The notes under the pieces were generated by a model. That model saw nothing but the letters and a program-made list of their open reading frames with translations, had not been told where the DNA came from and ran no database searches. DNA of 64,000 nucleotides from Myxococcales bacterium (GTDB lineage Bacteria > Myxococcota > Myxococcia > Myxococcales > UBA5297): the NCBI GenBank assembly GCA_036504155.1, contig DASXVQ010000049.1, positions 10,952 to 74,951 on the forward strand, read 5' to 3'. Every line of letters begins with the position of its first letter. The stretch's first letter is position 1. Positions 6,954-46,419 of this stretch are shown piece after piece. A program made the position numbers and the translations under genes.

Positions 6954-7041
6954 GGTCCTCTCGTTCGCTTCGCCGGGGCGCCCGCTTGCCGGCCTGGCCG
7001 GTCGCCGGAAAATCAAGATGGGGATCGTAGCGGTAGCGGGC

Positions 7042-9186: not shown

Positions 9187-11523
9187 ATGAGGCCCCTCCG
9201 CTCCCGCGCTCGCCGCGCTCTCGCAGCCCAGGCCGCCGGGACCGGGCTGCTCGTGGGCCTGGCGACGCTCGTTCCCCTCCTCGCGGGCCTGCGCTACCAG
9301 GGGACCGACCACTCGCGGATCCTGCTGGCGATGCAGTGCGCGGTCCGCCGCGGCCTGCAGCAGGGCTTCGCGCTCGACCCGGCGCTGGGCGGCGGCGGCC
9401 CGCTGCTGGCCGAGCTGCAGTCCGGGCTCTTCTACCCGGCGACCTGGCTGCTCCTGCCGTTCTCCGCCGAGACCGCCGCCTCGCTCTTCGTCCCGCTCCA
9501 CCTGGCCATCGCCGCGGCCGGGGCCGTGCTGCTCGCCGCCTCGTACCGCCTGCGCCCTGTCGCCCGCGTCGCGCTCGGCGTGGCCTACCCGCTGAGCGGC
9601 AGCGTCCTCAACCTCATCCTCCACGGACCGTTCCTCGCCGCGGCTACCTGGCTTCCCTGGGCCTGGCTCGGGGCGCGGTGGCTGCTGGGAACCCGGCACC
9701 GCGCCGCCGGGGTGATCGTCGCCAGCGTGGCCCTCGCGCTGGCGATCCTCAGCGGGGATCCCCAGGGATTCGGCGTGGCGAGCGGGATCGTCCTCCTCGA
9801 GGTCGCCGTGGCGCTCGCTCGCCGGCGCCGGCCGACGCGAGCCGCGCTCGCCGCGGGAGCGCTGGTCGCGGGGCTCCTGCTCGGCGGGCTGCAGTGGCTC
9901 CCGACGCTGGGACTGGCGCAGGCCTCGGCACGCGCCCGAGGCGCCTCGACCGAGCAGGTCGAGAGCTGGCCGCTCGGCACGCCGGAGCTCCTCGGGGTCT
10001 TCTGGCCCATCGACAGCACCGAACGGGTCAAAGGTGGGGCCTCGCTGCGCACCGCCTGGCTCGACGACCCGCTGGTCCAGCCGGCGTGGAACACGACGCC
10101 CCTGCTCGGGCTCGTCGCCGTGGTCGCCGCGCTGGTGGGCTGGCGCCTGCGCCGGGCACGAGCCGCGGCCGTCGCGGCCCTGCTCCTCACCTTGCTCTCG
10201 CTGGGCGCGCAAACGCCCGTGTTCCCTGCCCTGCTGCGGGTCCTGCCGCTGCTGGGCCTGTTCCGCTACCCCGCCCGCTACTTCGTCGGCGCGAGCCTGG
10301 CGATCCTCGTCGTGGCCGTCTGCTCCTTCGATCGCGCGACTCGCGAACGGACGGCGCGGCGGGCGCTGGCGATCGCCCTGGGCGTGGCCACGGCCGGCAG
10401 TGGAATCGCCATGACGATCGTCGCGGCCCGGGCCGGCGCCGTCGATGCGCTGGCGAGCCAGGTCGCCAACGCCGGCGGCTCAGCCTCTGCGAGCCTGCCG
10501 GCGCTCTCGACCGCCTTGAACGACGCGGGGCTCGTCTCCTCGCTCCTGTGTGCCCTGGCGCTCGCGGCGCTCTTGATGCGGCCGCGCTGGTCGCAGCTCG
10601 CGGTGGCGCTGCCGATGCTCGTCGCCGCGCCCGGGTTCCTGCCGCTCGACCGGCCGCTGCTCGAGACGCCTGCGACGCGGGCAGCCCTGGGCACTCCGGA
10701 GCAGGCGATGCTCTGCCACGGCCGGCACCTGGGCTCGGTGCACGTCGACCTGCCGGACCAGCCGCTCGACGTGCACGGCAACGTGCTCCCCGACCTGAAC
10801 GACCTGCTCCCGGACCTGCAGCAGTGCGGCGGGCCGGCGGTGCCGAACTGGTACCTGAGCAGCGCCCAGGCCGAGACGGTCTCGCTGGTCCGCGACCGGC
10901 TCGACGAGGCGACAGGCGCGCTCGGCCCGGCGCTCGCGCTGGGATGCACGCACCTGGTCACGCGCAGCAAGCAAGTCACAGCCGGGTACACCCAGCTCGA
11001 GGCCGAGCCGCCGGTGCCGTTCGTCGGCCGCCTCTACGCGATTCCCCGGCCGCTGCCCGGCGCGAGCGTCGCGCGCGAGCCCCTGTTGGCGGCCAGCGGA
11101 GCCGAGGCCGTGGAGCGCGTCTCATCGCTCTCGATCGCCGACGAAGTGGTTCGCGTCCTGGACGATCCGGCGTCCGCCAAGCCGGCGAGCCTGCCGGACG
11201 GCCGCGCGGTCGAGAAGGCTTCCGTTCGCTGGGACTCGCCGACGCGTGGGCAGCTCCGGCTCGAAGGAACCGGCGGCGCCGTCGCGGTGCTCAAGCGGCC
11301 GTGGTGGCCCGGCTGGCAGGCCCGGCAGGGCTCGACGGTGCTCCCGGTGCTGCGCGCGGCCGCGGTCCAGCTGGCGGTCGTCGTGCCCGACGCCGCGGCC
11401 GGGCCGGTGGAGCTGGAGTACTCGCCTCCGCTCGCGAGCTTGGGGATCGCCGTGTTCGCGCTCGGGGCGGCTCTGCTCGCTGCCCTTGCGTTGCTCGCAG
11501 GACGGCCAGCCGCGAAACAGTGA
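9187..11523 (+). CDS. polytopic integral membrane protein (possible YfhO/ArnT-like glycosyltransferase-type topology)
   Basis: This is a 778-aa ORF with ten or more hydrophobic segments, a large soluble loop, and a C-terminal TM. It starts 11 nt after the GNAT stop. The competing frame 9336..11531 is Arg/Gly-rich nonsense. Confidence 0.6.
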   Translation: MRPLRSRARRALAAQAAGTGLLVGLATLVPLLAGLRYQGTDHSRILLAMQCAVRRGLQQGFALDPALGGGGPLLAELQSGLFYPATWLLLPFSAETAASLFVPLHLAIAAAGAVLLAASYRLRPVARVALGVAYPLSGSVLNLILHGPFLAAATWLPWAWLGARWLLGTRHRAAGVIVASVALALAILSGDPQGFGVASGIVLLEVAVALARRRRPTRAALAAGALVAGLLLGGLQWLPTLGLAQASARARGASTEQVESWPLGTPELLGVFWPIDSTERVKGGASLRTAWLDDPLVQPAWNTTPLLGLVAVVAALVGWRLRRARAAAVAALLLTLLSLGAQTPVFPALLRVLPLLGLFRYPARYFVGASLAILVVAVCSFDRATRERTARRALAIALGVATAGSGIAMTIVAARAGAVDALASQVANAGGSASASLPALSTALNDAGLVSSLLCALALAALLMRPRWSQLAVALPMLVAAPGFLPLDRPLLETPATRAALGTPEQAMLCHGRHLGSVHVDLPDQPLDVHGNVLPDLNDLLPDLQQCGGPAVPNWYLSSAQAETVSLVRDRLDEATGALGPALALGCTHLVTRSKQVTAGYTQLEAEPPVPFVGRLYAIPRPLPGASVAREPLLAASGAEAVERVSSLSIADEVVRVLDDPASAKPASLPDGRAVEKASVRWDSPTRGQLRLEGTGGAVAVLKRPWWPGWQARQGSTVLPVLRAAAVQLAVVVPDAAAGPVELEYSPPLASLGIAVFALGAALLAALALLAGRPAAKQ

Positions 11524-14770: not shown

Positions 14771-14897
14771 GCCCCCCGCCGGCGTCTCCTCGCTCGGGAG
14801 AGCGCCGCGGGCCGCGCCCTCCGGCTCTCTCGCCGGGGAGGCCCGGAGTGCGCCCGGCCTTCCGGAGGGTTTGGAGACGAGGTCGGGCGAGTGCACG

Positions 14898-17357
14898 ATG
14901 CCTCCCGTGCGCCCCACACACTCCCCGAGTCCCTGCCGGCTGCGCCGCGCGTCTGCACTCTGCGCGGCGGCCTCGGCCTTTCTCGTCCTCGCCGGCTGCC
15001 GCGACTTCAAGGTCCCGGACCTCAAGGTCGAGAAGGCCCCCGTCGTCACCGACTTCGAGCCCAGGAAGGCCTTCGCCTGGACCGAGCTGCAGATCTACGG
15101 AGAGAACTTCGACCTCAAGCCCGAGAACAACGCGGTCCTGCTCGCGGGCGGCCTGACGGTGCGGGCCCACCCCAAGAAGCTCAGCGACACGGTGTTCGAG
15201 GAGCCGACCACCACCAAGCTCTACGTCTGGATCCCCGAGGCGCTGCAGGCCGAGGGCCCGATCAGCGTCACCACCCCGACCGGGACCAGCCAGCCCACGG
15301 AGGCCTCCTTCAAACCGATGGGCTACGGCCACCCCATCTACGGCACCAAGGTGGTGGACGTGCGCTTCCGCCACAAGCCGGTGGGCCTCTACGACAGCCC
15401 CGAGACGGTCCTCATCGCCTCCACCCTCTTCAACCAGCTCGTCAACGACACCGGGAAGTTCAAGCGGCTGGACGGCCGCGCCGTCGCCTTCGGGCGCGCC
15501 CCGGTGCCCGGCGAGGCGCTGGTCGCCGTGCGCACCGACGAGGGGCAGGGCGTCCTGGTCCTGGTGGACGGCGCGACCGGCGAGCCTCGGGCCAGGTCGG
15601 CGGGCGAAAAGATCGTCGAGGCCCTCGTCGTGGCCAGCCCCGAGGGCCAGCCCGTCCGCACCGTCGGCACCGGGCCGTACGGGCAGCACCTGCTGCGCAC
15701 CTGGCAGCGCGTCCCCGCCCCGCCCGAGCTGGACAGGCTCGAGCCCAAGGACACGCAGCTCGAGAACCTCACCCGGGTCCTGGGCGGCGCGGCCGACGGG
15801 ACGGGCACGGTCTACCTGGTGGCGACCGAGGCCAGGAACGACGCGGTCAAGACCGTGCTGCTGGCGGTCTCCTCCACCGGCGAGGTCTCGACCCGCTGGG
15901 AGCCCAACGGCATCGGCGAGCAGGACGACCGCCCGGTGGACCCGACCGGCCCCATCGCCGTGGTGGAGACGGCCCAGGGCCCGTACGCCGCGCTGGGGAT
16001 GGCGGACGGGGACCTGACCTTCGTCAACCTGACCGACGGGAGCGCGTGGCACGAGCTGCTGGTCTCCTTCGGGGAGGTGGGAGCGCTCGTCCGCGGCGCC
16101 AAGCCGGGCAAGGTGGTGCTGACCAAGCCCGTGGACGGCTCGGTCCTCCAGTACGACGTCTCCACCGCCTCGGTCGACTGGGCCGTCCAGATCCGCGGGG
16201 AGCCCACCGTGCTCGACGTCGCCCCGGACATCGGCGAGGGCGAGGTCGCCGTGGGCAACAACGAGGACAACGGGGTGGACATCATCGAGGCGGACACCGG
16301 GCTGTGGGTGGGCCGCATCTCCTTCAGCCTGGGGCTGGGCAGCGCGGCCCAGGGCGAAGGCGGGCTGGTGGCTCCCTACTCCTACTACCCGGAGAAGCTC
16401 CCCTTCGTGATCCACGTGCTCGCGCGCTCCGCCGGGATGGTCCTGGCGCTCGACGCCAGCTCGCTCGACCTGGTGCGGACGTATGAGCTCGCGACCGAGA
16501 CCGAGGACCAGAAGCCGGTCTCGGAGCCCCTGCGCCTGATGGTGACGCACGACCTGCGCACCCTCGTCGTCCACGCCAAGGAGCTGGGCATCCTCGACGA
16601 GAAGACCGGGCGGGAGCGCATCCTGGTGACCGGGCTGCCCATCGCGCCGACGCACGTCGCTTCGCTGCCCGACAACGGGGTGGTCGTGGGCACTCCCACC
16701 ACGGTGACCCTCTACCAGTGGCAGGGCGAGGAGCACCTCGTCTACGCGGGCCACGTGGCGCTGAAGGATTCGACGCTGGCGGCGCTGGGCGTGTGGGAGG
16801 ACGTCGAGGACGACGAGGCCCGGACCAGGAACCTCGAGATCATGGTGACCCGGAGCACCGCGGCCGGGTACGTGGTCGACTTCTACGACCCCAACGTGCT
16901 CGCCCTGAGCGGCGGCTCCCGCCACAAGGCGCCGCTGGCCCCGGAGATGGGCGACTTCCTGGGCTCGGCCACCATGCTCCAGGGCCCGGTGCTGGCCTTC
17001 GGCCGCTCCATGCTCGAGACGGAAGCCGGCGCGGTGCTGCCGGCGATGGTGGAGTGGAAGGACATCCTCGCGCCGGTCCGCAATCCGCCGCAGGAGCCCC
17101 TCTACCTCCCGTCGGAGCTCGACTCGCCGGTCATGGTGGGCGGGACCCCCGACGGCCGCTACTTCGCCTGGATGAGCGAGCGGCAGGGAGTGCACGTGGT
17201 GCGGCTGGTCGAGTACGACCCCAACTACTGGCAGCAGGCGTGGGTCTGGTCCACCTACCAGCTGGAGAACCGCGGCTCGAGCCTGACCTTCGACCCCAGC
17301 GGCCAGTGGATGTACGTCGCCATCCCCAAGCTCGACCTGCTCAGCGTCTTCCAGTAG
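14898..17357 (+). CDS. lipoprotein with N-terminal IPT/TIG domain and large beta-rich body (paralogue of 52702..55245)
   Basis: ATG at 14898. Lipobox AFLVLAGCRDFKVP. IPT-like segment VVTDFEPRKAFAWTELQIYGENF. Long ORF with GC3 bias. Confidence 0.75.
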   Translation: MPPVRPTHSPSPCRLRRASALCAAASAFLVLAGCRDFKVPDLKVEKAPVVTDFEPRKAFAWTELQIYGENFDLKPENNAVLLAGGLTVRAHPKKLSDTVFEEPTTTKLYVWIPEALQAEGPISVTTPTGTSQPTEASFKPMGYGHPIYGTKVVDVRFRHKPVGLYDSPETVLIASTLFNQLVNDTGKFKRLDGRAVAFGRAPVPGEALVAVRTDEGQGVLVLVDGATGEPRARSAGEKIVEALVVASPEGQPVRTVGTGPYGQHLLRTWQRVPAPPELDRLEPKDTQLENLTRVLGGAADGTGTVYLVATEARNDAVKTVLLAVSSTGEVSTRWEPNGIGEQDDRPVDPTGPIAVVETAQGPYAALGMADGDLTFVNLTDGSAWHELLVSFGEVGALVRGAKPGKVVLTKPVDGSVLQYDVSTASVDWAVQIRGEPTVLDVAPDIGEGEVAVGNNEDNGVDIIEADTGLWVGRISFSLGLGSAAQGEGGLVAPYSYYPEKLPFVIHVLARSAGMVLALDASSLDLVRTYELATETEDQKPVSEPLRLMVTHDLRTLVVHAKELGILDEKTGRERILVTGLPIAPTHVASLPDNGVVVGTPTTVTLYQWQGEEHLVYAGHVALKDSTLAALGVWEDVEDDEARTRNLEIMVTRSTAAGYVVDFYDPNVLALSGGSRHKAPLAPEMGDFLGSATMLQGPVLAFGRSMLETEAGAVLPAMVEWKDILAPVRNPPQEPLYLPSELDSPVMVGGTPDGRYFAWMSERQGVHVVRLVEYDPNYWQQAWVWSTYQLENRGSSLTFDPSGQWMYVAIPKLDLLSVFQ

Positions 17358-17591: not shown

Positions 17592-18623
17592 ATGACCTTC
17601 TATTCCCGAATGGCAATCGTGGCGGCCGTCCTGTTGGCGAGTGGCCGGGCCGCGGCGGAGGTGGTCTGGCGCGGGGACTTCGAGTGCGGCGACCTCTCCC
17701 AGTGGACCAAGGCCCAGGCCGTCAGCCCCGACCGGCTGGAGGTCTTCGAGGGCGGCTCCGGGCAGGGCGGCCGCTACGCGCTCAAGGCCACGGTGGTGCA
17801 GGGCGACAACCCCATCGGCGCCAGCGGCAACCGCAACGAGCTGACCTACACGAGCTACGAGGCCAGCGGCACCGAGCGCTTCTACCGCTGGCAGACCAAG
17901 TTCGCCGACGACTACCCCTCGGCCGACGCCTGGCAGCTCTTCACCCAGTGGCACCACGAGGGCCCCTCCGGCTCGCCGCCGGTCGAGTTCGTGGTGCGCA
18001 AGGAAGAGATCTACCTGAACATCGTCGGCGAGCGCGTCTGGGGCATGCCGCTCGAGCGCGGCCGGTGGATCGACTTCATCTTCCACGTGAAGTGGTCGCC
18101 CGACCCCGCCGAGGGTTTCGTCGAGCTGTACGTCGACGGGAAGAAGGTCCTCGAGAAGCTGCCCAGGGGCACCCAGTTCCCCGGCGAGCTGAACTACCTC
18201 AAGCAGGGCCTCTACCGCGACGCGAAGATCCAGGAGACCGGCGTGGTCTTCCACGACGGCATGACCATCGGGACGTCGCTGGCCGACGTGATGCCCGAGG
18301 CGGCCGCCGCCGCCGGGCCGGGCGCGGCGGCTCCGGTCGGGCCCGCCGCTCCCCAGGCCGGCGCCGCAGCGCAGGCCGCGGCGCCCGGAGGTGCCCAGGC
18401 AGCGTCGCCGGCCTCGCCCAGCGCGCCGCACCAGGCCGCGTCCGGCGCCATCCCTTCCGGCGACCCGAACCCTGGAGGAGCGCCCTACGCCGGGGCCGGC
18501 TGCAGCTCCGCCTCGGGCGAGGCGCCGGTGCTCTTCCTCGGCCTCATCGTCGGGCTCGCCCTGCTCGTCCGCCGCCGCGCCGCGGCCCGCTCCACCGCCG
18601 CTGGCCGCAGGAACCGCCTGTAG
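17592..18623 (+). CDS. secreted polysaccharide-lyase-like (PF14099/PL20-like concanavalin-fold) protein with MYXO-CTERM anchor
   Basis: It has a signal peptide and motifs GNRNELTY...RFYRW...QWHHEG...SPPVEF...ELYVDGK. The C-terminus GAGCSSASGEAPVLFLGLIVGLALLVRRR is a MYXO-CTERM signature. Confidence 0.7.
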   Translation: MTFYSRMAIVAAVLLASGRAAAEVVWRGDFECGDLSQWTKAQAVSPDRLEVFEGGSGQGGRYALKATVVQGDNPIGASGNRNELTYTSYEASGTERFYRWQTKFADDYPSADAWQLFTQWHHEGPSGSPPVEFVVRKEEIYLNIVGERVWGMPLERGRWIDFIFHVKWSPDPAEGFVELYVDGKKVLEKLPRGTQFPGELNYLKQGLYRDAKIQETGVVFHDGMTIGTSLADVMPEAAAAAGPGAAAPVGPAAPQAGAAAQAAAPGGAQAASPASPSAPHQAASGAIPSGDPNPGGAPYAGAGCSSASGEAPVLFLGLIVGLALLVRRRAAARSTAAGRRNRL

Positions 18624-18648: not shown

Positions 18649-19260
18649 CTACGCCAGCATGCCCCGGAAGTAGACCTCGATGGCCGTGTCCACGGAGGCC
18701 TCCAGGTCGAACGAGGCCTCCGCGGTCGTCCAGCGCAGGAGCAGCTCCTTCACCGCCCCCACGATGCAGACCGACAGCGCCACGGGCTCCAGGCTGCGGA
18801 CCACCCGGCCGCTCTGCTGGGCCTGGGCGATGTAGCGGGCGGAGACCTGGACGACCTTCTCGAAGAACTCGCTCACGCGCTCCTGGGTCTCGGTCCCCAG
18901 GGATTCCCGCAACATCACCTTCACGAAGCACTTCACCTCCGGCTCGCGCGCGAGCGCCCGGACCGAGTCGCGGTAGAGCTGCCGCAGCTCCTCGCCCGGC
19001 AGGTCCATCGAGATGTCCAGGGTCTCGATGACCGCGTCCAGCTGGCGCAGGTAGGTCTCGACGATCATCTTCAGGAGATCGCCCTTGCCGGTGAAGTGCA
19101 GGTAGAAGGTCCCGCGCGCCGCGCCCGCGGCCTCGATGATGTCGTTGATGGAGGTCGCGGCGAAGCCCTTCTCGGCGAACAGCTTCAGCGCGGCGGCCAT
19201 GATCTCGCCCTGACGCTTGAGGCCGTCCTTGCGCTTCACCCTGGGGGCGGTCGCTTCCAT
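18649..19260 (-). CDS. TetR-family transcriptional regulator
   Basis: ATG at 19258-19260. The N-terminal HTH is LKLFAEKGFAATSINDIIEAAGAARGTFYLHF. It is 203 aa. The ORF-track 1277-aa ORF is this frame running antisense through the GRE gene. Confidence 0.85.
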   Translation of the reverse strand: MEATAPRVKRKDGLKRQGEIMAAALKLFAEKGFAATSINDIIEAAGAARGTFYLHFTGKGDLLKMIVETYLRQLDAVIETLDISMDLPGEELRQLYRDSVRALAREPEVKCFVKVMLRESLGTETQERVSEFFEKVVQVSARYIAQAQQSGRVVRSLEPVALSVCIVGAVKELLLRWTTAEASFDLEASVDTAIEVYFRGMLA

Positions 19261-19295: not shown

Positions 19296-22200
19296 CTACG
19301 CATAGCAAGTCCGGTTGATGATGACCTTCTTCAGGTCGTCGGAGAGGTCGTTGAAGTAGGCGCAGTAGCCCGCGATCCGGACCAGGAGGTAGGGGTGCTT
19401 CTCCGGGTGGGCGTACGCCTCCAGGAGGATCTCCCGGCTGATCACGTTGGGCTGGAACTGCATGCCGCCCTGGTCGAAGTAGGTCTTCACGATGCCGGCG
19501 AGGTTCTTCACCCCCTCGGGCCCGTCGAAGAGCGCGGAGTCGATGGTGAAGGTGACGGTGGTGCCGTTGGGCGCGTACCGCCGGAAGTCGACCCCGACCT
19601 CGGAGTTCAGGGCGGAGAGCAGGTCGGCCTGCTTCATCCCGTAGTGCGGAGTGAGGCTGTTGGCCAGCGGGACGCCGCGCAGCCTCCCCGACGGCAGGGC
19701 CGGCGTCTTCAGGCCGTAGACGATGTTGACGTTCAGGGCGTAGTAGCCGGCGGCGTAGATGCCGTCGCGCGGGCAGTTCGGGACCGACCGCAGGGCGTCG
19801 ACGTAGATCTGCAGCGTCCGGTTCATCCACTCCTGGGGCCTGCGCGAGGTGTCGTCGCCGAACTTCGGCACCGCCAGCAGCGCCGTGCGGATCTCCTGGT
19901 TGCGCGCCCCGACGAAGTCGGCGTCCAGCGCCGCGAGGACCTCCTCCAGGCGGTAGAGCCGCTGCCGGAAGACGACCTCCTCGAGCGCGTGGAGCGAGTC
20001 CGCGACGTCGGTGATCCCCACGGCCTGGATGCCGCTGCTGTTGAGCCGCGCGCCGCCGTCGTAGGCGTCCCTGCCGCGCTCGACGCATCCCTTGAAGAGC
20101 GAGGAGGCCAGCGGCGTGGTGAAGCCCTCGCGCAGCGCCTTCTCGATCCGCTGGTGGTCGGCGAGCACCGAGCCCGCGAGCCGGTTCAGGCGCGCCTGGA
20201 AGCGCTCGAGCAGCTCCTCCATCGTCGCCGGCGGGCCAAGGGCCAGCGGCCGCTGCCGCCGCTCGTGCAGCTCGACGGCCTTCCTCGACGCCGCGGACGC
20301 GAGCCGCGCGAGGCGCCCGTCGCCGCGGCAGGAGTGCTCCACGAACCGCGTCTGCAGCTTGAGCAGCTGGTCGGCGAGGCCGAAGCTCCACAGGTCGCTC
20401 TCGTCGCCCCGGAGCGCCTGCAGGAACGGCAGCGCCACGTTCATGTTGGCGCAGTCGGTGTTGCCGAAGTGGTCGTCGGACGCGTTGGGCTCCACGCAGC
20501 CGACGATGGCGTAGTTCCGGGCGTCCTCGACGGTCGTGGCGTAGTGGCGCTGCAGCGTGTCCACGTAGACGTGATCGTTGTACAGGGCCGGCATCGGGGC
20601 GCCGGTGAGGTACACCTCGGCCAGGCGCTCGAGATACTCCGGCGGGCTGTCCCGGTGGACCCGCGCCGTCATGTTCACGGCCAGGGGCTGCAGCTCGCAG
20701 ATGTCGAGGAGCATGTAGGTGACGTCGTTGGTGGCGTCCTTGCCGTCCCTGCCCATGCCCCCCGCCGTGACGGTCTGGTCGGTGGACTGGGTCTCGAAGA
20801 GCCGGCCGATCCGCAGGAAGCTGTCGCCGTCGCTGAGCAGGATGGCCTCGTCCATCTTGAGGACGAAGAGCGCCAGCAGCTCCTTCGCCGCCTCGAAGTC
20901 GAGCAGACCCGCCGCCCGGTCGCGGGCGAAGTACGGGTAGAGGATCTGGTCGAGCCGCCCCAGCGACACCGCGTTCTCGTACGACTCGAGGCACAGCGCG
21001 ATCTGCAGGAAGAGCATGCTCTGCAGCGCTTCGCGGTAGGTGCGCGCGGGGAGCCTGGGCACGCGGGCGCACGCCGCGGCGCCCTCCTCCAGCTCCCGCC
21101 GGCGGGCGGGGTCGCGCTCGCCCGTCGCCAGGCGCGCCAGGTGGTCCGAGTACCGCTGGGCGAAGGCCTCCAGCCCCTCCAGGGCGATGAGCGCGCCGCG
21201 GTAGAAGTCCTGGTCGTTCTCGGGATTCTCCCGCTGCGCCCGGCGGATCTCCTCGGCGATGCCGGTGGTGCCCAGCGTCAGGATGCGCTCGAAGTTGACG
21301 ACGAAGTGCGCGATCGCCGCCAGGTTGTTGTTGAACCCGGCCCGCATCTCCGCGCAGCGGGCCAAGGTCTGCAGCAGGCCCTTCAGCGTCGGGTTCACCT
21401 TGGTGAGCAGGCCATGCCGCGCCCAGAACGGGAAGATCTCCGTGTAGAAGGCGAGGCGGTCCTTCCAGGAGCACTGGAAGGACACCGGCGCCAGGCGCTC
21501 CGTCTTGTGGAGCAGCAGGATCAGCAGCGCGCCGAAGTGCTCCTCCCAGACCTGGGCGCCGACGCGCTGCGCGGTGAAGTTGCCGAAGAGCAGCTCCTGC
21601 GGATGGATGGCGATCTGCTTGTGCTCCAGCACGTAGGCCAGCCGCCGCGCGCGGTGGATGGGGGTCGGCTGCCCGAAGCCGTGCTTGCGGTAGAAGCGCG
21701 TCTTGAGCTTCGAGGACTCGAGGCACAGGTGGTAGTCGCTCTGCCGGATGGCGTCCCGGATGGCGTGGACGCGCGGGCTGAAGGACGCGCGGCGGCGCGG
21801 CCCGCCCAGCGCGGTGCAGTGCGCCGCGATGCCCTGGGCCCGGAACCTCGCCACCGCAACATTCACCGCCTCCTGGCTCTGGGCCGGAGTGACGAGGCCC
21901 AGCGAGGCCCGCTCGATCGAGAGCCGCCGCGCCTTGTCCACGTGCAGGTCGTGGTACTCGAGCAGCTCGATCGACTCGAAGCCTAGCGAGCGCAGCAGCT
22001 CGGCCGTCGCGCGCACGCCCTGCTCGGAGTCGTTGAGCCCCGGGACGACCACCGTGCGGAACCGCAGGTTCGCCTTCAGCTCCACCAGCCGCCGCAGGTT
22101 GCTGGCCACCAGCGTGCCGCTCTGCCCGGTGAGCCTGCGGTGGAGCACGTCGTCGCCGACGACCTTCAGGTCCACCAGGAAGAGGTCCACCAGCGGCGCG

Positions 22201-22625
22201 ACCCGGGCGACGGTCCGCGCCGGCGCGTGCAGGGACGTCTCGACCGCGACGTGGAGGCCGCGGTCCTTGAGCGCCGTCAGCAGGCGCACCAGGCTCTCTT
22301 CGCCCTGCACGAGCGGGTCGCCGCCGCTGAGCGTGACCCCGCCGCCGGTGGACCGGTAGTACTCGCGGTCCCGCCCGACGACCTCGAGGATCTCCTCGAG
22401 CGAGGGACCCTTCTCCGCCGGCGTGCCCGGGTCGGCCTGGAGCGCCTCGGGGTTCTGGCACCAGAGGCACCTCAGGTTGCACCCGCGGAAGAAGATCGTG
22501 GTGCGGACGCCGGGACCGTCGTGCACGCAGGTGCGCTGGATCTTGAGGACGTCGAGCCCGCTGGCGCTCTCGTCCTGCGAGGTTCCACCCGCGAGAACAG
22601 AGAGATGCGCTTGCGTGGTCTGCAT
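19296..22625 (-). CDS. fused glycyl-radical-enzyme activase (radical SAM) + glycyl radical enzyme (PFL2/glycerol-dehydratase/CutC-like family), single 1109-aa polypeptide
   Basis: The N-terminal ~280 aa carry the C-x3-C-x2-C motif (GCNLRCLWCQNPE) and the GGDPL motif of GRE activases. They are followed directly by a full GRE body: a PFL2-type N-terminus (RVHAIRDAI...LCLESSKLKTRFYRKHGFGQPTPIHRARRLA), the single-Cys/Glu active site AIVGCVEPN, and the glycine radical motif RIAGYCAYF near the C-terminus. There is no stop between the domains. Confidence 0.85.
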   Translation of the reverse strand: MQTTQAHLSVLAGGTSQDESASGLDVLKIQRTCVHDGPGVRTTIFFRGCNLRCLWCQNPEALQADPGTPAEKGPSLEEILEVVGRDREYYRSTGGGVTLSGGDPLVQGEESLVRLLTALKDRGLHVAVETSLHAPARTVARVAPLVDLFLVDLKVVGDDVLHRRLTGQSGTLVASNLRRLVELKANLRFRTVVVPGLNDSEQGVRATAELLRSLGFESIELLEYHDLHVDKARRLSIERASLGLVTPAQSQEAVNVAVARFRAQGIAAHCTALGGPRRRASFSPRVHAIRDAIRQSDYHLCLESSKLKTRFYRKHGFGQPTPIHRARRLAYVLEHKQIAIHPQELLFGNFTAQRVGAQVWEEHFGALLILLLHKTERLAPVSFQCSWKDRLAFYTEIFPFWARHGLLTKVNPTLKGLLQTLARCAEMRAGFNNNLAAIAHFVVNFERILTLGTTGIAEEIRRAQRENPENDQDFYRGALIALEGLEAFAQRYSDHLARLATGERDPARRRELEEGAAACARVPRLPARTYREALQSMLFLQIALCLESYENAVSLGRLDQILYPYFARDRAAGLLDFEAAKELLALFVLKMDEAILLSDGDSFLRIGRLFETQSTDQTVTAGGMGRDGKDATNDVTYMLLDICELQPLAVNMTARVHRDSPPEYLERLAEVYLTGAPMPALYNDHVYVDTLQRHYATTVEDARNYAIVGCVEPNASDDHFGNTDCANMNVALPFLQALRGDESDLWSFGLADQLLKLQTRFVEHSCRGDGRLARLASAASRKAVELHERRQRPLALGPPATMEELLERFQARLNRLAGSVLADHQRIEKALREGFTTPLASSLFKGCVERGRDAYDGGARLNSSGIQAVGITDVADSLHALEEVVFRQRLYRLEEVLAALDADFVGARNQEIRTALLAVPKFGDDTSRRPQEWMNRTLQIYVDALRSVPNCPRDGIYAAGYYALNVNIVYGLKTPALPSGRLRGVPLANSLTPHYGMKQADLLSALNSEVGVDFRRYAPNGTTVTFTIDSALFDGPEGVKNLAGIVKTYFDQGGMQFQPNVISREILLEAYAHPEKHPYLLVRIAGYCAYFNDLSDDLKKVIINRTCYA

Positions 22626-22776
22626 GGCTTGCTCCCAGGTCGCCGGCCTAACATGGACTCGCAGTCCATGTTAGCACGGGCTCGGAAGCTAGCGGCGGCC
22701 TGGCCCTGCTCGCCGAGGAGTGTGGCAGGCTTCTCGCTCCGCTCTTGACCGGCTCTGGCTCCTGGGAGGACACGCC

Positions 22777-25092
22777 ATGCGGTTCCTGCTGCGCTTGCTC
22801 GGGTCGCGCCTGCCGCGCACCGAGGGACGGCTGGGCGCGCCCGTGCGCTCCGAAGTGGCGATCCGCCGGGACCGCCACGGCATCGTCTACGTCGAGGCGC
22901 GAGACGACGACGACGCGTTCTTCGGCCTGGGCTTCGCCGAGGCGCAGGACCGCGCCTTCCAGCTCGAGCTCTTCGTGCGGGCCGCCCGCGGAACGCTCTC
23001 CGAGCTGGTGGGCGCCGAGATGCTCGACGCCGACCGCCTCGCCCGCCGCCTGGGCTTCCTGCGCAACGCCCGCGCCCAGGTGGGCAGGCTGCCCGCCGCC
23101 GCGCGGGCCCAGCTCGAGGCCTTCGCCCGCGGCGTGAACTTCGCCGTGCGCCAGGGGCCGCGGACCCACGAGTCGGTGCTGCTGGGCGCGCCGCCCTTCG
23201 TCCTCGAGCCCGCCGACTCGCTGGCGGTGGTGCAGTTCATCGCCTTCGCGCTGTGCTCCAACTGGGACGCGGAGCTGGCGCGCCTGCGCGTGCTGCTCGC
23301 CGACGGCCCGGAGGCCCTGATCGCGATCGAGGCGGCCGACCCTGCGCTGCTCGCCACCGAAGAGGGCTCGCGCCTGGAGCGGGACGCCCGCCTGCTGCAG
23401 GCTGCCGACGCGCTGGCGTCCGAAGCGGGGCAGCTGCTGCGCGTCGGCCCGTCCGCGGGCGCTTCCAACAACTGGGTGCTCGCGCCGTCGCGCACCACCA
23501 CCGGCCGTCCCCTGCTCGCCTGCGACCCGCACCTGTCGCCGATGCTGCCCGCCTACTGGTACCTCGCCCACGTGCGGACCCCGGAGTGGGCGATGAGCGG
23601 CGCCTTCTTCCCCGGGCAGCCGGTGGCGAGCTTCGGGCACAACGAGACGGTGGCCTGGGGCTTCACCGCAGGCCACCACGACAACACCGATCTCTTCGTC
23701 GAGCGCCTGTCCGACGACGGCACGAAGGCCTTCCGGGAGGGCCGGTGGGAGGGCTGCGAGGTGCGCGACGAGGTCATCCGGGTGCGCGGCAGGCCGGACG
23801 TGCACGAGCGGGTGGTCGTCACGGCGCGCGGGCCCATCGTCACCCCCTGCCTATCGACCGGGGGACCGGCCCTCTCGATGCGGGCGACGTGGATGGCGCC
23901 CCGCCCGTTCACCTCCTACCAGCTCTTCCGCGCCGCCACGGTGGCCGAGGCCAGGGAGTTCTTCCGCTCCTACCCGGGAGACTCCGAGAACCGGCTCTTC
24001 GCGGACGTGAACGGGACCATCGCCTGGCAGCTGGTCGGCGACGCGCCGGTGCGCCGCGGCGGCCACGGCCTGGTGCCGATGCCCGCCTGGCACGGCGACG
24101 CAGGTTGGGAGAGCGAGCCCCTGCCTTTCGAGTCGATGCCGGGAGTCACCGACCCGCCCGAGGGCTTCCTGGCCACCGCCAACCAGGCACCGGCGGCCCC
24201 GACGCCTTCGTTCCTCGGCGCGGACTGGCTCGACGGCGGCCGCCACGCCCGCGTCGTCGAGCTGCTCGCGACGAAGGAGAAGTGGGACCTCGAGTCGGCG
24301 ATGCGGATGCAGCTCGACCGCACGACCGTGTACTGGAAGGCGCTGCGCGAGAAGGTGCTCTCGGCGGTTCGCGGATCCGCCGCCACGCAAGCCGTCGCGC
24401 TGCTCGAAGCCTGGGACGGCGCGGTGGACCCGGGCTCGACCGCGGCCTCGGTCTACGAGCTGTGGTTCGCGGAGCTGATGTGCCGCGTCTGCCGGGCCAA
24501 GGCTCCCCGGGCCTGGCGCGCCGCCCTGGGCGAGGGCCTCAACGCCCTGTTGCCCCACGGGATGATGGGGCTGAGGCGCTCGGCCCAACTGGTGCGGCTC
24601 GTCCAGTCGCAGCCCGACGGCTGGTTCGACGGCGGCTGGCCCGCCGAGATCCGCGCCAGCCTCGACGCCGCGGTCGCGCGGCTCGAGCGGGCCGCCGGGC
24701 GCGACCCGAAGCGGTGGGCCTGGGGAAAGGTCCGGCCGCTGGTGCTGACGCACCCGGTGGGCACCAAGCCGGTGCTCGGCAGCCTCTTCAACCTGGGCCC
24801 CATCGCCTTCGGAGGCGACGGGAGCACCATCCCGCAGGCCTCGGTTCCCTTCGACGAGCCGCTGGCCAACCCCATCGGCGTGCCGAACCTGCGCATGGTC
24901 CTCGACGTCGGGAATTGGGAGGCGAGCCGCTGGGTGCTCGCCGGGGGCCAGTCCGGCAACCCGCTCTCGGCGCACTACGGCGACCTTTTGCCGATCTGGG
25001 AGCGCGGCGAGGGCGTGCCGATCGCGTGGTCGAAGGAGTCGGTCGCCGAGGCTGCGCGCGAGCAACTGACCCTGGCACCGACCCGCGGCTGA
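22777..25092 (+). CDS. penicillin-amidase (Ntn-hydrolase S45) family acylase, possibly an acyl-homoserine-lactone acylase
   Basis: It has the N-terminal YVEARDDDDAFFGLGFAEAQDRAFQLE motif, the nucleophile motif GASNNWV, and a ~770-aa length typical of the PvdQ/QuiP/penicillin G acylase family. ATG at 22777. Confidence 0.85.
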   Translation: MRFLLRLLGSRLPRTEGRLGAPVRSEVAIRRDRHGIVYVEARDDDDAFFGLGFAEAQDRAFQLELFVRAARGTLSELVGAEMLDADRLARRLGFLRNARAQVGRLPAAARAQLEAFARGVNFAVRQGPRTHESVLLGAPPFVLEPADSLAVVQFIAFALCSNWDAELARLRVLLADGPEALIAIEAADPALLATEEGSRLERDARLLQAADALASEAGQLLRVGPSAGASNNWVLAPSRTTTGRPLLACDPHLSPMLPAYWYLAHVRTPEWAMSGAFFPGQPVASFGHNETVAWGFTAGHHDNTDLFVERLSDDGTKAFREGRWEGCEVRDEVIRVRGRPDVHERVVVTARGPIVTPCLSTGGPALSMRATWMAPRPFTSYQLFRAATVAEAREFFRSYPGDSENRLFADVNGTIAWQLVGDAPVRRGGHGLVPMPAWHGDAGWESEPLPFESMPGVTDPPEGFLATANQAPAAPTPSFLGADWLDGGRHARVVELLATKEKWDLESAMRMQLDRTTVYWKALREKVLSAVRGSAATQAVALLEAWDGAVDPGSTAASVYELWFAELMCRVCRAKAPRAWRAALGEGLNALLPHGMMGLRRSAQLVRLVQSQPDGWFDGGWPAEIRASLDAAVARLERAAGRDPKRWAWGKVRPLVLTHPVGTKPVLGSLFNLGPIAFGGDGSTIPQASVPFDEPLANPIGVPNLRMVLDVGNWEASRWVLAGGQSGNPLSAHYGDLLPIWERGEGVPIAWSKESVAEAAREQLTLAPTRG

Positions 25093-29674: not shown

Positions 29675-32600
29675 TCAGGGCAGCAGCGTGCCGTTCCACG
29701 GGCTCGCCGCGGCGTCCACGCTCACCGTGCTCGTCAGCGTCGTGAACCCGGCCTTCGTCGCGCTGATCGCGTACGGCCCGGCGTAGACGTTGTTGAGGAT
29801 GAAGTAGCCGTTGGTGTCGGTGGTCGCGGCCAGCCCGTACGGCTCCAGCTTCACCGCCGCGCCGCTCACCGCCGTCCCGCCGCCGTCCTTCACGTAGCCG
29901 AAGAAGCTCACCTTGGCGGGCGCCGTCGCGCCGACCTGCACCAGGAAGTGCGCCGCCTTCTGCGTCAGGTTGCCCTGCGTGTCCTCGGCGACGAGGTGGA
30001 AGTAGTACGCGAAGCCGCTGATGGCCTGGCCCCCGGCGTCCTGCGTGAGCGTGATCCCCGCGTTGGCGGTGCGCGTCCACTGCGCCTTGGCGTTGGCCGG
30101 CGAGGTGTCGCTGACGCGGTCGAGGCGGTACCAGAACGCCGGGAAACTAGCCGCGGTGGTGTTCGCGGGCGGCGTCCACGTCAGCGCGATGGCGGTGCCG
30201 GGGTACCAGGTGGTGGAGCTCGCGTGGCTCGAGGAGGCCACGGTGTGCGCCGTCTTGTTCACGTTGAAGAGGAAGCGGTTGGCCAGCGTGCCCACCGCCG
30301 CCGTGGCGTCCTGGCCGACGATGCTGAAGGCCGAGGCGCCGCCCGACAGGATGGTGGCCGCCGGGAAGCTGGCGGTCAGGCCCGTGCCGAAGGTGCTGTT
30401 GGTGGGAGTGACCGCGACGGTGCGGCTGCCGATGAGGCTCCAGTAGCCCTGCGCGCTGGCGAACGGCGCGAGCCAGGAGATCGACAGCTGGCTGAAGCCG
30501 TCGTTGTAGGAGAGCGCCGGGTCGGGGTGCGTCGACGAGGTGATCGAGAGCGGCGGCGTGACCGAGACGACCGCGGTGGTGCCGGTGACGGTCGCGGTGT
30601 TGGTGAGCTTGGTGCCGTAGGCGATCTTGACCCAGCCCTCTCCGCCCTTGCCGCCGTTGGCGGGGTAGGTCGAGAAGGGGCTGGGCGTGCCGCCAGTGCC
30701 GCCGAGGGCGCCCGCCGCGGAGAGGGTGCCGCTGAGCATGACGTCCGCAGAGGCGAGGACGATCGATCCGCCGGCGCCGCCGCCGCTGCCCGCGCCGTAG
30801 TTGCTGGCGTTGATGCCGGCCCCGCCGTCGGCCTTGAGCGCGCCGTAGACCACCAGCGTGCGCGCGGCGATGAGCTTGAGTGCCCCGCCGCCCTTGCCGC
30901 CGGCGCGGACGTAGGACGCGTTGCAGCTGCCGTTGTTGATGTCGACGTAGTTGCAGCCGCTGCCGCCAGAGCCGCCCAGGGGCGCGTCGAGGTCGAGCGA
31001 GCCCTGCGCCGAACCGCCGCTGGCGCCGGTGACGCTGTAGGTCACGCCGCAGACGCTGCCCAGGCAGCCGCCGTACTCGAAGCTCTTGTTGCAGCCCACG
31101 GTGGTCTTGGCGTTCTCGCCTGCGGTCTTGTTCCCGCCTCCGCCGGCGCCGGTGTAGGCGATCTCGGTCACGCAGACCGGGGCGTAGTAGTTGTAGCTCG
31201 CACCCGACGCATCGGTGGACACCGCGCTCAGGTCGATGCTGGAAGCCGGGTCGATCGAGATGTCGTCGGCGTACACGGTGAGCGCGCCCGTGGAGCAGGT
31301 GACCTTGGCGCCGCCCTGGATGATCAGCTTGCCCAGGTGCTGCTCGCCGCACAGCTCGCGGCTCGCGGAGATCGTCAGGTCCGGCAGCGTGATCGTCAGG
31401 CTGCAGGTGGCCTGGTTGGTGGCGCCCTTGTCGTCGGTGACGGTGAGGGTCGCGGTGAAGCTCCCGCGCGAGGCGTAGGCGTGCTGCACGCTGGTCGCCG
31501 CGCCGCTGGCGGGCGCCGTGCCGTCGCCGAAGTCGAAGGCGTAGAGGACGACGCTGCCGTCCGGGTCGCTGGACTGCGAGGCGTCGAGGGTGAGCGCGGC
31601 GCCCTGCGTGCCCGAGGCGGGGCAGGTCAGCTTCGCCACCGGCGGCTGGTTCACCGCCACGGTGATGGCCACGTCGCAGCTGGCCTGCGCGGTCGCGCCC
31701 AGGTCGTCGGTCACGGTGAGCGTGACGGTGAAGGTGCCGGCCGCGGCGAAGGCGTGCGTCGTCGACACGCCGCTGCCCTTCCCGCCGTCGCCGAAGTCGT
31801 ACGCGTAGCCGGCGACGGTGCCGTCGGGATCCGTGGAGGCCGAACCGCTGAAGGTGAGCGCCTGGCCGACGAACCCGCTCGAGGGGCAGGCCAGCGCGGC
31901 GTTGGGCGGAAGGTTGGCGGCGCCCGCGGGCTTGCCGGGCGTCGGCACCGCGGTGTGGAAGTCGGTGAGGTTGTCGTTGGTGTCGGTGCAGGCCGCGTCG
32001 CGCGTCAGGCTCTGGTCGTCGAGCGTGTCCGGGGCGGCCGTGCCCTCGCCGGCGAAGTGGTCGGTGGCGGTGAAGGTGCCGTAGCCGACCGCGTCGAGGA
32101 CCGTGGTTCCGTTACGCAGTTGGATGGAGTCCGGGCCGTTCTGGAAGTCGACCTTGGTGGAGGTCACGTCCGCCTGGCTGAGGATCGCCGTCTTGGCGTT
32201 GGGGTGCGCGATGACGAAGTAGCCATCGGCGGGGATGGTGCCGGTCAGGGCGATGGCGTTGTAGTCCGCGCCATCGGAGCCGTTGACGCCCACCAGCGTG
32301 TGGTTGGCCAGGCTCGCGCCCGCCGGGCCGTGCAGCTCGACGAAGACGTCGTAGTCGGTGCCGGTCGCCCGGTAGAGCACCTCGGAGATCTTGACCAGCG
32401 AGGGCGCGGAGACGGCGACGGTGCAGGTGGCGGTGCCGGTGGCGCCCTTGTCGTCGGTCACGGTCACCGTGGCGGTGTAGCTGCCGGCCGCCGAGAACGC
32501 GTGCTGCGCGGTCGCGCCGGCGCCCGCGGCCGAGGTCGCGCCGTCGCCGAAGGCGTAGGAGTAGCCGGCGAGGGTCCCGTCGGCGTCGGTCGACTGGCTG

Positions 32601-33933: not shown

Positions 33934-34205
33934 TGGCGGTTCTCCCCGAGTGAGCGGCGGTCGAGCGCGAGACCATACGACCGCCTGTGGGCCCCAACCA
34001 GGGTTCCTCGGCCGGAGGAGAAGTGGGAATCGGTTGTGGATTGAGGGGAGCGCGAGGGGAGACTGACAACCTGTGGGCCGCCCAGTGGACTGATATCGGG
34101 GGTGGTTGGCAGCAGGGGGTGGTCGGGAAAATCGCTCCTGGGGGCAGCCAGAGGCCTCGTTTTTCGAGCGACAGCACCCAAGACGGCTTTCCCGCCCTTC
34201 GCGCT

Positions 34206-46250: not shown

Positions 46251-46419
46251 GACCGACCTCGTAGCAGCTTGCAGGTGTCGAAAGGAGCCCCCGCAACAGC
46301 GAAGGACGGTGGCCAGCCGATGTCGCGCCCGCCCCGCAACCCTCGGCCACCCGGGCCGATTTTCGGGCTCCGCCAGGACGCCGGCGGCGCGCCGAAGCAG
46401 CCCTCCTCCCGCCATCAAC

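Follow-up and report, generated by a model that had tools for sequence, protein, structure and literature searches.

Introduction

The glycyl radical enzymes (GREs) nearest to the protein discussed here are the B12-independent glycerol dehydratase of Clostridium butyricum (Protein Data Bank (PDB) entry 1r8w), the 1,2-propanediol dehydratase of Roseburia inulinivorans (5i2a/5i2g and 9rco) and PFL2 of Archaeoglobus fulgidus (2f3o), and in both dehydratase systems the activase is a separate protein that bears a ferredoxin-like domain. Separate activases also serve CutC/CutD, HypD, IslA/HpsG and YbiW/PflD, and Escherichia coli PflA (3c8f/3cb8) is a free-standing protein of 245 residues that acts catalytically on pyruvate formate-lyase (PFL), an enzyme of Cys-Cys chemistry. 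The vast majority of GRE activases carry the ferredoxin-like domain, the role of which is unknown; the sole exceptions, built from a radical-SAM (S-adenosylmethionine) domain and nothing else, are the PFL activase (PFL-AE) and the activase of class III ribonucleotide reductase (RNR) (PMC13450708). In this article, I describe an arrangement in which activase and enzyme are not separate at all: in a stretch of 64,000 nucleotides from a Myxococcales bacterium (contig DASXVQ010000049.1; the whole stretch is called the window below), one open reading frame (ORF) encodes a radical-SAM activase and a complete GRE as a single polypeptide, which is probably a working enzyme and which belongs to a family that extends well beyond the myxobacteria.

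A full-text literature search, with subscription journals largely outside it, found no published description of a natural activase-GRE fusion, and an earlier mention is possible; a review of the field from June 2026 contains neither the word 'fused' nor the word 'fusion' (PMC13450708), and no fused activase-GRE protein was found in the PDB. Public databases nevertheless contain the architecture, where automatic annotation has given it generic labels ('pyruvate formate lyase family protein', 'radical SAM protein' and 'formate C-acetyltransferase' among them), and the protein of this locus has an NCBI entry of its own (HEY3446370.1, 'Myxococcales bacterium').

One Reading Frame for an Activase and a Glycyl Radical Enzyme

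An earlier note on this DNA had described an activase together with a complete PFL2-type GRE in one frame of 1109 codons, and the frame does encode both. Four Pfam domains follow one another in the order Fer4_12, Radical_SAM, PFL-like and Gly_radical (Table 1), the NCBIfam model TIGR02494 for GRE activases scores 210.6 bits against a cut-off of 174.35, and the alignment to TIGR01774 (PFL2-3) takes residues 283-1107 across profile positions 3-783 of 786, end to end, so the GRE part, residues 284-1109, is complete. Matches to hidden Markov models (HMMs) of GREs and of GRE activases are strong in Pfam and NCBIfam alike, and the motifs that had been quoted (CNLRCLWC, GGDP, GCVEP and RIAGY) are all present at the residues listed in Table 1. 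The activase half has a CX3CX2C motif and a SAM-binding motif of the GGE type, as GRE activases do, and the GRE half has what defines the PFL-like branch, namely the barrel followed by a C-terminal radical domain, the glycine loop and a catalytic cysteine, Cys710.

Long spurious ORFs are frequent in the window because the G+C content around the locus is about 70-77%, and despite their abundance the frame on the minus strand is the true coding frame: its G+C content at third codon positions (GC3) is 0.98, matching that of the adjacent genes, and a Shine-Dalgarno-like GGGAG lies 6 nt 5' of the ATG. The exact 1109-residue protein, with identical neighbours, also stands on a 52-kb JGI contig and on a 10.7-kb Logan contig, which are independent assemblies that possibly draw on the reads of one sample, so that the samples are not necessarily independent. 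A search of 5.8 billion proteins gave 539 hits, and the best 120 clusters (at 90% identity) were aligned and underlie all counts of invariance given here; at least 120 clusters carry the same four domains in 1077-1139 residues and are 61-80% identical to the query. An internal stop or a frameshift at the junction was sought in these 120 homologues and none was found, the junction alignment being gapless and the linker stretch from H269 to F282 measuring 14 residues in 119 of the 120. The junction, GGPRRRASFSPRVHAIRD, covers residues 274-291 and nucleotides 21753-21806; the earlier note had been right about its presence and slightly off in placing it at about 21730-21800. An assembly artefact is excluded.

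A Family that Crosses Phyla and Domains

The fused gene is a member of a large cross-phylum family and not a one-off of this myxobacterium. When one genome per species (GTDB) was scanned, a single fused ORF appeared in about 50 species-level genomes at 51-66% identity to the query, with 45% as the lowest pairwise identity among these copies, and an exhaustive HMMER search of 1.84 billion representatives reduced the family to a single full-length cluster (P0088, at 50% identity) with some fragments beside it. The hosts are Spirochaetota/Leptospiraceae, Smithella and other Syntrophales, Desulfomonilia/Thermodesulfobacteriota, Bacteriovoracaceae, Clostridia/Oscillospiraceae, Hydrogenedentota, three Asgard archaeal bins and the Myxococcota, among them bins of Anaeromyxobacteraceae and Kofleriaceae. 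The family is widespread in anoxic sediments, wetlands and digesters. Kinship in sequence cuts across taxonomy, the Asgard copies (L030, L035 and L059) being up to 71% identical to a spirochaete copy (L006) and the window copy being 65% identical to Leptospirales/Spirochaetota versus 53-63% to other Myxococcota, and it therefore speaks for repeated horizontal transfer across phyla and domains, which a built-in activase would ease.

Outside the clade, the closest sequences are ordinary GREs without a fusion, some 790-810 residues long and 33-40% identical, and four features set the clade apart from them: the fusion, an activase free of the usual insert, an insertion of about 45 residues in the GRE and an invariant aspartate, Asp616. 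Both halves are constrained, with C49/C53/C56, G101/G102/P104 and R41 invariant in the activase and C710/E712, D724, D616, Y962 and R1083/A1085/G1086 in the GRE. Further fusions of an activase to a GRE exist at 32-43% identity, in the metagenomic sequences P0122, P0130 and P0208 and in KAJ3428281.1 of Anaeramoeba flamelloides (P0127); P0122, P0208 and P0127 share the order activase, PFL-like, Gly_radical in one polypeptide of 1052-1136 residues and, unlike the present clade, keep the two-cluster Fer4 insert and are without the insertion at 743-790 and Asp616, so fusion apparently arose more than once. Only the clade described here is large, each of the other fusions checked comprising 1-3 sequences.

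Two members of this wider set stand out on their own account. P0127, from an anaerobic eukaryote, has VGSCEL for its Cys loop and PLSGN for its glycine loop, and may not be a working GRE. In the orthologue L051:9965-12064, from the metagenome-assembled genome (MAG) of an uncultured delta proteobacterium, the ORF ends after 699 residues and the tblastn match covers query residues 19-1109, an interruption to be put down to a frameshift or pseudogene or else to faulty assembly of the bin.

The Activase Half and the Linker

The first 22 residues of the protein are unconserved and are of low confidence or disordered in the AlphaFold2 (AF2) model, in which strands and helices extend over residues 26-269 with per-residue confidence (pLDDT) mostly above 85, and phmmer aligns E. 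coli PFL-AE (3c8f) to residues 34-240 in one stretch. The three cysteines of a CX3CX2C motif are the ligands of the SAM-cleaving [4Fe-4S] cluster, and the DGPGVR motif presumably forms the loop to which the GRE's glycine loop binds, as judged from the PFL-AE/peptide structure. In being a radical-SAM domain only, with CX3CX2C, GGE-type and DGxGxR motifs and no auxiliary clusters, the fused activase resembles E. coli PflA. At the place of the ferredoxin-like insert, a loop of about 14 residues is found in 12 of 12 fused activase domains versus 50-65 residues with two CX2CX2CX3C motifs in 11 of 11 separate activases of related loci; residues 1-283 hold just five cysteines (C33, C49, C53, C56 and C270), the match to TIGR02494 falls into two stretches that skip profile positions ~45-104, and at residues 66-69 pLDDT drops under 50 in the AF2 model, as for a disordered loop. 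The PflA model TIGR02493 scores 146.2 bits, under its cut-off of 231.75 and lower than TIGR02494, which places the domain nearer to the PFL2-type activases than to PflA; it has the look of one of them from which the insert was lost, and lacking that insert it is not a typical one.

Unlike the usual activase, a separate polypeptide that acts on its GRE, this one is covalently joined to the GRE through 14 residues. At this linker F282 and R285 are invariant, and the AF2 model gives a mean pLDDT of 71 at residues 271-280 and above 90 on either side, so that the linker is predicted to be ordered, at moderate confidence. The model as a whole is confident (pLDDT 88.4, pTM 0.89), and its pTM value would fit two domains that pack against each other in a definite way.

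The Glycyl Radical Half and Its Probable Chemistry

Foldseek matches the catalytic barrel to 1,2-propanediol dehydratase (9rco/5i2g), glycerol dehydratase (1r8w) and A. fulgidus PFL2 (2f3o) at target-normalised TM-scores of 0.91-0.93, the ten-stranded barrels of the two dehydratases lying at 0.91-0.92 in spite of only 26-29% identity. PFL2 is the best match in sequence (334 bits, 30% identity) and shares the strand motif ExYE[NQ]A[IV]S and the GCVE loop, and it differs in having no fused activase, no insertion at 743-790 and an asparagine at the position of Asp616. The glycine loop RIAGY matches the pattern RVxG[FYW] of GREs, and a CXE motif is the hallmark of GRE 1,2-eliminases and isomerases (PMC13450708). 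The Cys loop GCVEP is invariant in the 120 sequences, and C710/E712 align with C433/E435 of 1r8w and C438/E440 of 5i2a, which upholds the earlier proposal of Cys/Glu chemistry rather than the Cys-Cys chemistry of PFL.

Further equivalences, taken from phmmer alignments to 1r8w and 5i2a, extend the likeness to the pocket, where His164, Asp447 and Tyr640 of glycerol dehydratase are represented by His440, Asp724 and Y962 (the last invariant or nearly so), and the logic of a radical 1,2-elimination is expected to be the same. In glycerol dehydratase, Glu435 deprotonates the C1 hydroxyl and His164 is proposed to protonate the leaving C2 hydroxyl (PMC13450708), and because His440 is retained, a hydroxyl leaving group is favoured here. 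The residues of the two dehydratases that bear on the substrate are kept in part: Ala552 stands for Ser282, and Asp616 takes the substrate-selecting position, which is Tyr339 in the glycerol and Phe344 in the propanediol enzyme. This aspartate follows a 4-residue insertion and was seen in none of the relatives aligned with the clade, of which 9 are unfused and 3 belong to other fusions. Two carboxylates, D616 and D724, would lie where the pocket ends, and they favour either a polyol or a substituent that is cationic and bears an amine. Taken together, these residues suggest that the enzyme is a 1,2-eliminase or an isomerase.

The insertion that follows the Cys-loop strand makes this region about 41 residues longer than in 1r8w and 2f3o; neither the nearest unfused GREs nor any of the other fused families have it, and it has AF2-predicted helices at 750-765 and 771-791, and may be a docking surface for the activase domain.

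As to the substrate, on which the earlier note had ventured nothing, all substrate-specific NCBIfam models stay at or below 336 bits against cut-offs of at least 1000, the equivalogs giving, in bits with the cut-off in brackets, HpfG 335.9 (1000), E. coli PRK09983 327.1 (1109), HypD 307.5 (1100), HpsG 299 (1000) and CutC 276 (1050). The choline TMA-lyase CutC/CutD, the hydroxyproline dehydratase HypD, the sulfonate lyases IslA/HpsG and the isomerases YbiW/PflD, which are likewise CXE-type GREs of the same fold, share 22-26% identity with the fused protein. Because these models remain below their cut-offs, and because PFL and the X-succinate synthases match much more weakly than the eliminases do, the protein is filed under the CXE class and under no characterised enzyme.

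Genomic Context

A TetR-family regulator lies downstream of the fused gene on the same strand, as the earlier note had it, at a distance of 35 nt and not 36; it combines a TetR_N helix-turn-helix with a ligand-binding C-terminal domain. The next gene downstream, for a polysaccharide lyase, is convergent, so the operon would consist of the GRE and TetR genes only, and these two are probably co-transcribed. Upstream, the penicillin-acylase-family gene is divergent, again as described, and shares with the fused gene a 151-bp intergenic region that contains a perfect palindrome of 12-N3-12 form, comparatively A+T-rich for this high-G+C region, which is the sole match in the 64-kb window and was matched in 0 of 100 shuffles. 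The palindrome is a plausible candidate for the TetR operator, and TetR bound to it would give ligand-induced, autoregulated expression. A promoter consensus scan upstream of the fused gene gave no match, and neither did Rfam and tRNA scans of the window.

The other annotated parts of the window contain typically myxobacterial genes (Mfd, a P-type ATPase, a sigma-54 activator, a Ser/Thr kinase and a histidine kinase, for example), and no anaerobe-specific markers were seen there. To say that an O2-sensitive GRE implies an anaerobic lifestyle goes too far; what follows from a GRE is the ability to run an anoxic metabolism, which facultative anaerobes have too. Elsewhere in the window, five long ORFs (399-847 residues, GC3 0.92-0.99) have no Pfam match at E<=1e-5, and a very large gene of about 1500 codons (29675-34177, minus strand) corresponds to a product on the matching JGI contig with repeated PKD domains and CarboxypepD_reg.

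The neighbourhoods of the homologues were compared by clustering all ORFs of 86 loci, by a Pfam search of the genes immediately beside the fused one (93) and of those two or three places further along (121), by inspecting 30 selected neighbours individually and by reading the Pfam-annotated contigs of five homologues. No Pfam family occurred in more than 3 of the 49 loci analysed, save a GntR/FadR-type regulator in 9; this GntR protein with FCD/FadR_C is encoded directly upstream on the same strand, at 14-133 nt, in nine Smithella-like loci (L009, L010, L012, L018, L019, L021, L026, L039 and L053). TetR proteins are among the immediate neighbours in 3 loci, nothing recurs more than three times among the 121 genes further out, and relatives at 68-74% identity have wholly different neighbours. 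A polysaccharide lyase or a penicillin amidase stands beside the fused gene in no other locus examined, and the TetR and penicillin-amidase neighbours are specific to this genome rather than conserved with the fused gene. Unlike the loci of the glycerol and propanediol dehydratases, the fused loci have no conserved downstream genes for processing aldehydes or alcohols, and neither an alcohol or aldehyde dehydrogenase nor a microcompartment shell family recurs in the 93 plus 121 neighbours scanned. Because its neighbours are not conserved, the fused gene behaves as a self-contained one-gene unit.

Some neighbours were seen in a few loci. A GPH/MFS_2-type transporter lies near the fused gene in five loci of Clostridia (L027, L036, L037, L040 and L062), and single loci have a glycerophosphodiesterase (L036), a DAO/BFD/Pyr_redox_2 protein resembling glycerol-3-phosphate (G3P) dehydrogenase (L040) and a PAP2 phosphatase (L038), which together weakly suggest a connection with glycerol or with the head groups of phospholipids. 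Scattered loci further contribute a corrinoid protein, START/SRPBCC proteins, a sulfatase, an aldehyde:ferredoxin oxidoreductase and a GMC oxidoreductase. Reading a substrate from the neighbourhood was rejected, the hints being too few and mixed, and so was reading a ligand from the regulators: the TetR proteins here and in L014 match Bacillus subtilis FadR (YsiA) at 61-66 bits against a cut-off of 200, and the matches of the GntR proteins to LldR, PdhR and FadR are equally weak.

Table 1. Coordinates of the fused gene, its parts and other features of the window (aa, amino acids; invariance refers to the 120 aligned sequences).
Feature	Position in window	Strand	Residues	Evidence or remark
Whole fused gene, activase-linker-GRE	19296..22625	-		Single ORF with ATG start, 1109 aa plus stop; four Pfam domains in frame
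Radical-SAM activase (GRE-AE) domain	21816..22556	-	~24-270	Fer4_12 and Radical_SAM; TIGR02494
Fer4_12			36-124	Pfam E 7e-12
Radical_SAM			44-201	Pfam E 5e-17
DGPGVR motif	22503..22520	-	36-41	D36, G37, P38 and G39 near-invariant, R41 invariant
CX3CX2C motif (CNLRCLWC; C49, C53, C56)	22458..22481	-	49-56	Three Cys invariant
Short 14-residue loop in place of ferredoxin-like insert	22404..22445	-	61-74	Alignment with separate activases
GGDP, 'GGE'-type SAM-binding motif	22314..22325	-	101-104	G101, G102 and P104 invariant
Inter-domain linker	21777..21818	-	270-283	Constant length, gapless alignment
GRE catalytic barrel, PFL-like	19665..21776	-	284-987	PF02901 from residue 284, Pfam E 5e-123; Foldseek matches
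His440	21306..21308	-	440	= His164 of glycerol dehydratase (1r8w alignment); near-invariant in clade
Asp616	20778..20780	-	616	Tyr339/Phe344 position; invariant
Cys loop GCVEP, with Cys710 (thiyl) and Glu712 (CXE)	20487..20501	-	709-713	G709 to P713 invariant
Asp724	20454..20456	-	724	= Asp447 of glycerol dehydratase (1r8w alignment); invariant
Clade-specific insertion, ~45 residues	20256..20399	-	~743-790	After Cys-loop strand; two predicted helices
Glycyl radical domain	19350..19664	-	988-1092	PF01228, Pfam E 2e-19, profile positions 2-106 of 106
Glycine loop RIAGY, radical site Gly1086	19365..19379	-	1083-1087	R1083, A1085, G1086 and C1088 invariant
TetR-family regulator	18649-19260	-		203 aa; PF00440 TetR_N E 9e-17, PF08359 TetR_C_4 (YsiA-like) E 2e-6
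Polysaccharide lyase	17592-18623	+		PF14099; convergent
Palindrome CTAACATGGACT CGC AGTCCATGTTAG (+ strand)	22648-22674			22 nt upstream of fused-gene ATG
Penicillin amidase-family gene	22777-25092	+		Divergent; Pfam E 7e-174
Gene	14871-17357	+
Long ORF	5817-7016	-		No Pfam match
Long ORF	7122-8423	-		No Pfam match
Long ORF	9187-11523	+		No Pfam match
Long ORF	44334-46418	-		No Pfam match
Long ORF	52702-55245	+		No Pfam match

Discussion

The reading that best accommodates the architecture, the conservation across the family, the retained motifs and the lack of conserved neighbours is that of a genuine, functional and self-activating glycyl radical enzyme, and I consider it probable by a good margin. 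The N-terminal radical-SAM domain would bind one [4Fe-4S] cluster through C49/C53/C56 and, once reduced by a cellular flavodoxin or ferredoxin, would cleave S-adenosylmethionine to a 5'-deoxyadenosyl radical, which would take a hydrogen atom from Gly1086, either of its own subunit or of the partner subunit in the expected homodimer, after the glycine domain has swung out of the barrel. The minimal, PFL-AE-like activase would be held at 1:1 with the GRE by the linker of invariant length. The glycyl radical would then generate a thiyl radical on Cys710, which would abstract hydrogen from a carbinol carbon of the substrate while Glu712 deprotonates the carbinol hydroxyl and the adjacent group, most likely a hydroxyl protonated by His440, leaves, so that the enzyme would be a 1,2-eliminase, or an isomerase if the leaving group stays attached. 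Its substrate would be a small polar compound, suggested to be of the polyol or amino-alcohol type, with its far end held by Asp616 and Asp724. In this organism the gene would form a two-gene operon with its TetR repressor, probably controlled through the upstream palindrome, and in the family at large it would have moved between distant lineages as a one-gene cassette with the activase built in.

Several observations weigh against this account or against parts of it. Almost all members of the family come from MAGs, and the orthologue L051 appears interrupted. The score for TIGR01774 is 476.1 bits, below the cut-off of 678.2 even though the alignment is full-length, and the fused family is by this score more divergent than the curated subfamily; the substrate-specific models fall far shorter of their cut-offs. 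The substrate class rests on a handful of aligned residues, the replacement of Ser282 by Ala552 goes against it, and the hints from context diverge, running from glycerophosphodiesterase, a G3P-dehydrogenase-like protein and PAP2 to aldehyde:ferredoxin oxidoreductase, a sulfatase and a corrinoid protein. Finally, PFL at a 1:1 ratio of activase to GRE has its radical installed faster and loses it faster too (PMC13450708), and a permanent 1:1 tether is for that reason of no obvious advantage; one may speculate that it favours fast, repeated activation over a long radical lifetime, which could suit organisms at oxic-anoxic boundaries.

The alternatives concern the reality of the fusion, the role of the activase and the identity of the enzyme. 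That the long ORF is a sequencing or assembly error, by which two truly separate genes, one for the activase and one for the GRE, lost the stop codon that divides them, might be argued from the fact that such genes are normally adjacent but separate, as they are in the distant loci L070 and L075-L086, and from the broken ORF of L051, which tells us that errors do arise in such genome bins; yet the identical protein came out of two assembly pipelines, the single ORF recurs in at least 120 clusters and some 50 species genomes across a gapless junction of constant length, and a clade-wide deletion in the activase part is not what merely a standard neighbouring activase would display, so I give this explanation next to no credence. 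A vestigial radical-SAM domain, or one purely regulatory or structural, with a separate activase elsewhere in the genome doing the activating, is improbable as well, if less extremely so: the ferredoxin-like domain has indeed been lost, and in the HPAD system it is reportedly required if the glycyl radical is to last (PMC13450708), but PFL-AE and the class III RNR activase function with the radical-SAM domain alone (PMC13450708), the cluster ligands, GG[DE]P and DGPGxR are invariant or near-invariant in 120 sequences about 60-80% identical to the query, and none of the fused loci has a separate activase within a distance of 10 kb.

If the fusion is real and active, the question becomes which enzyme it activates. 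The source annotations of JGI and NCBI ('formate C-acetyltransferase', 'pyruvate formate lyase family protein') would make it a pyruvate formate-lyase fused to its activase, and the radical-SAM-only activase is like that of PFL, but the Cys loop is G-C-V-E without the adjacent Cys-Cys pair on which the PFL mechanism depends (PMC13450708), the PFL model TIGR01255 reaches 104.5 bits against a cut-off of 994.2 and aligns at the C-terminus only, PFL in the PDB (1h16) matches residues 943-1106 only, and the activase prefers TIGR02494 to TIGR02493, all of which makes PFL exceedingly unlikely. Only a very slight probability attaches to a hydrocarbon-adding enzyme of the X-succinate synthase type, in spite of the many members from Smithella and other Syntrophales and of a top phmmer hit, PFL2 2f3o, for which such a role has recently been suggested, glycerol dehydratase and methylalkylsuccinate synthase being the two functions under debate (PMC13450708): MasD scores 137 bits and benzylsuccinate synthase 101 bits against 250-334 bits for the eliminases, no small-subunit genes are conserved nearby, a CXE motif with a polar, acidic pocket is unsuited to a hydrocarbon, and the family also occurs in Leptospira, Clostridia and Asgard bins. 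A fused orthologue of a characterised eliminase or isomerase, most plausibly the B12-independent glycerol or the 1,2-propanediol dehydratase, in which the architecture alone would be new, is unlikely but keeps a real share of the probability, since these two enzymes are the top structural matches, His164, Cys433, Glu435, Asp447 and Tyr640 are kept as H440, C710, E712, D724 and Y962, and a few loci have neighbours from glycerol or phospholipid metabolism or an aldehyde:ferredoxin oxidoreductase; what tells against it is an identity of just 24-30%, equivalog models far under their cut-offs, an invariant Asp where Tyr339 and Phe344 distinguish the two dehydratases, Ala in place of Ser282, and the lack of a recurrent dehydrogenase or shell family among the neighbours scanned.

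A self-activating enzyme of the kind proposed here would bear on four points raised in the recent review of the field. The sole structural view of GRE activation is that of PFL-AE bound to a peptide of 7 residues, the exit of the glycine domain from the barrel and its return are not understood, the ferredoxin-like domain of most activases awaits a role, and the main practical obstacle to new GREs lies in activases that are insoluble or hard to reconstitute and in weak GRE-activase interfaces (PMC13450708). A natural 1:1 tether with a rigid linker and without auxiliary clusters touches all four, and it makes the fused family an obvious choice for attempts to trap the activation complex by crystallography or cryo-EM, would permit tests of cis versus trans activation and of half-site reactivity, and offers a possible template for engineered GREs that activate themselves.

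For the organisms concerned, the family marks a reaction that is still unassigned and that is widespread in Smithella, Desulfomonilia, Spirochaetota and Clostridia, and to my knowledge no function of a PFL-like GRE is known in Asgard archaea. I would go one step further, tentatively and at somewhat less than even confidence, and regard the clade as a natural single-chain 'radical cassette', composed of a minimal activase, stripped of the auxiliary clusters found in nearly all activases other than those of PFL, a fixed linker and a barrel with a helical insertion, that is horizontally transferable, has crossed between Bacteria and Asgard archaea, and may eliminate (1,2-) or isomerise a substrate outside the list of those known for GREs, for instance an amino-alcohol or polyol held by Asp616/Asp724. 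If this is true, a single transferable gene would confer a complete glycyl-radical system on the cell that receives it.

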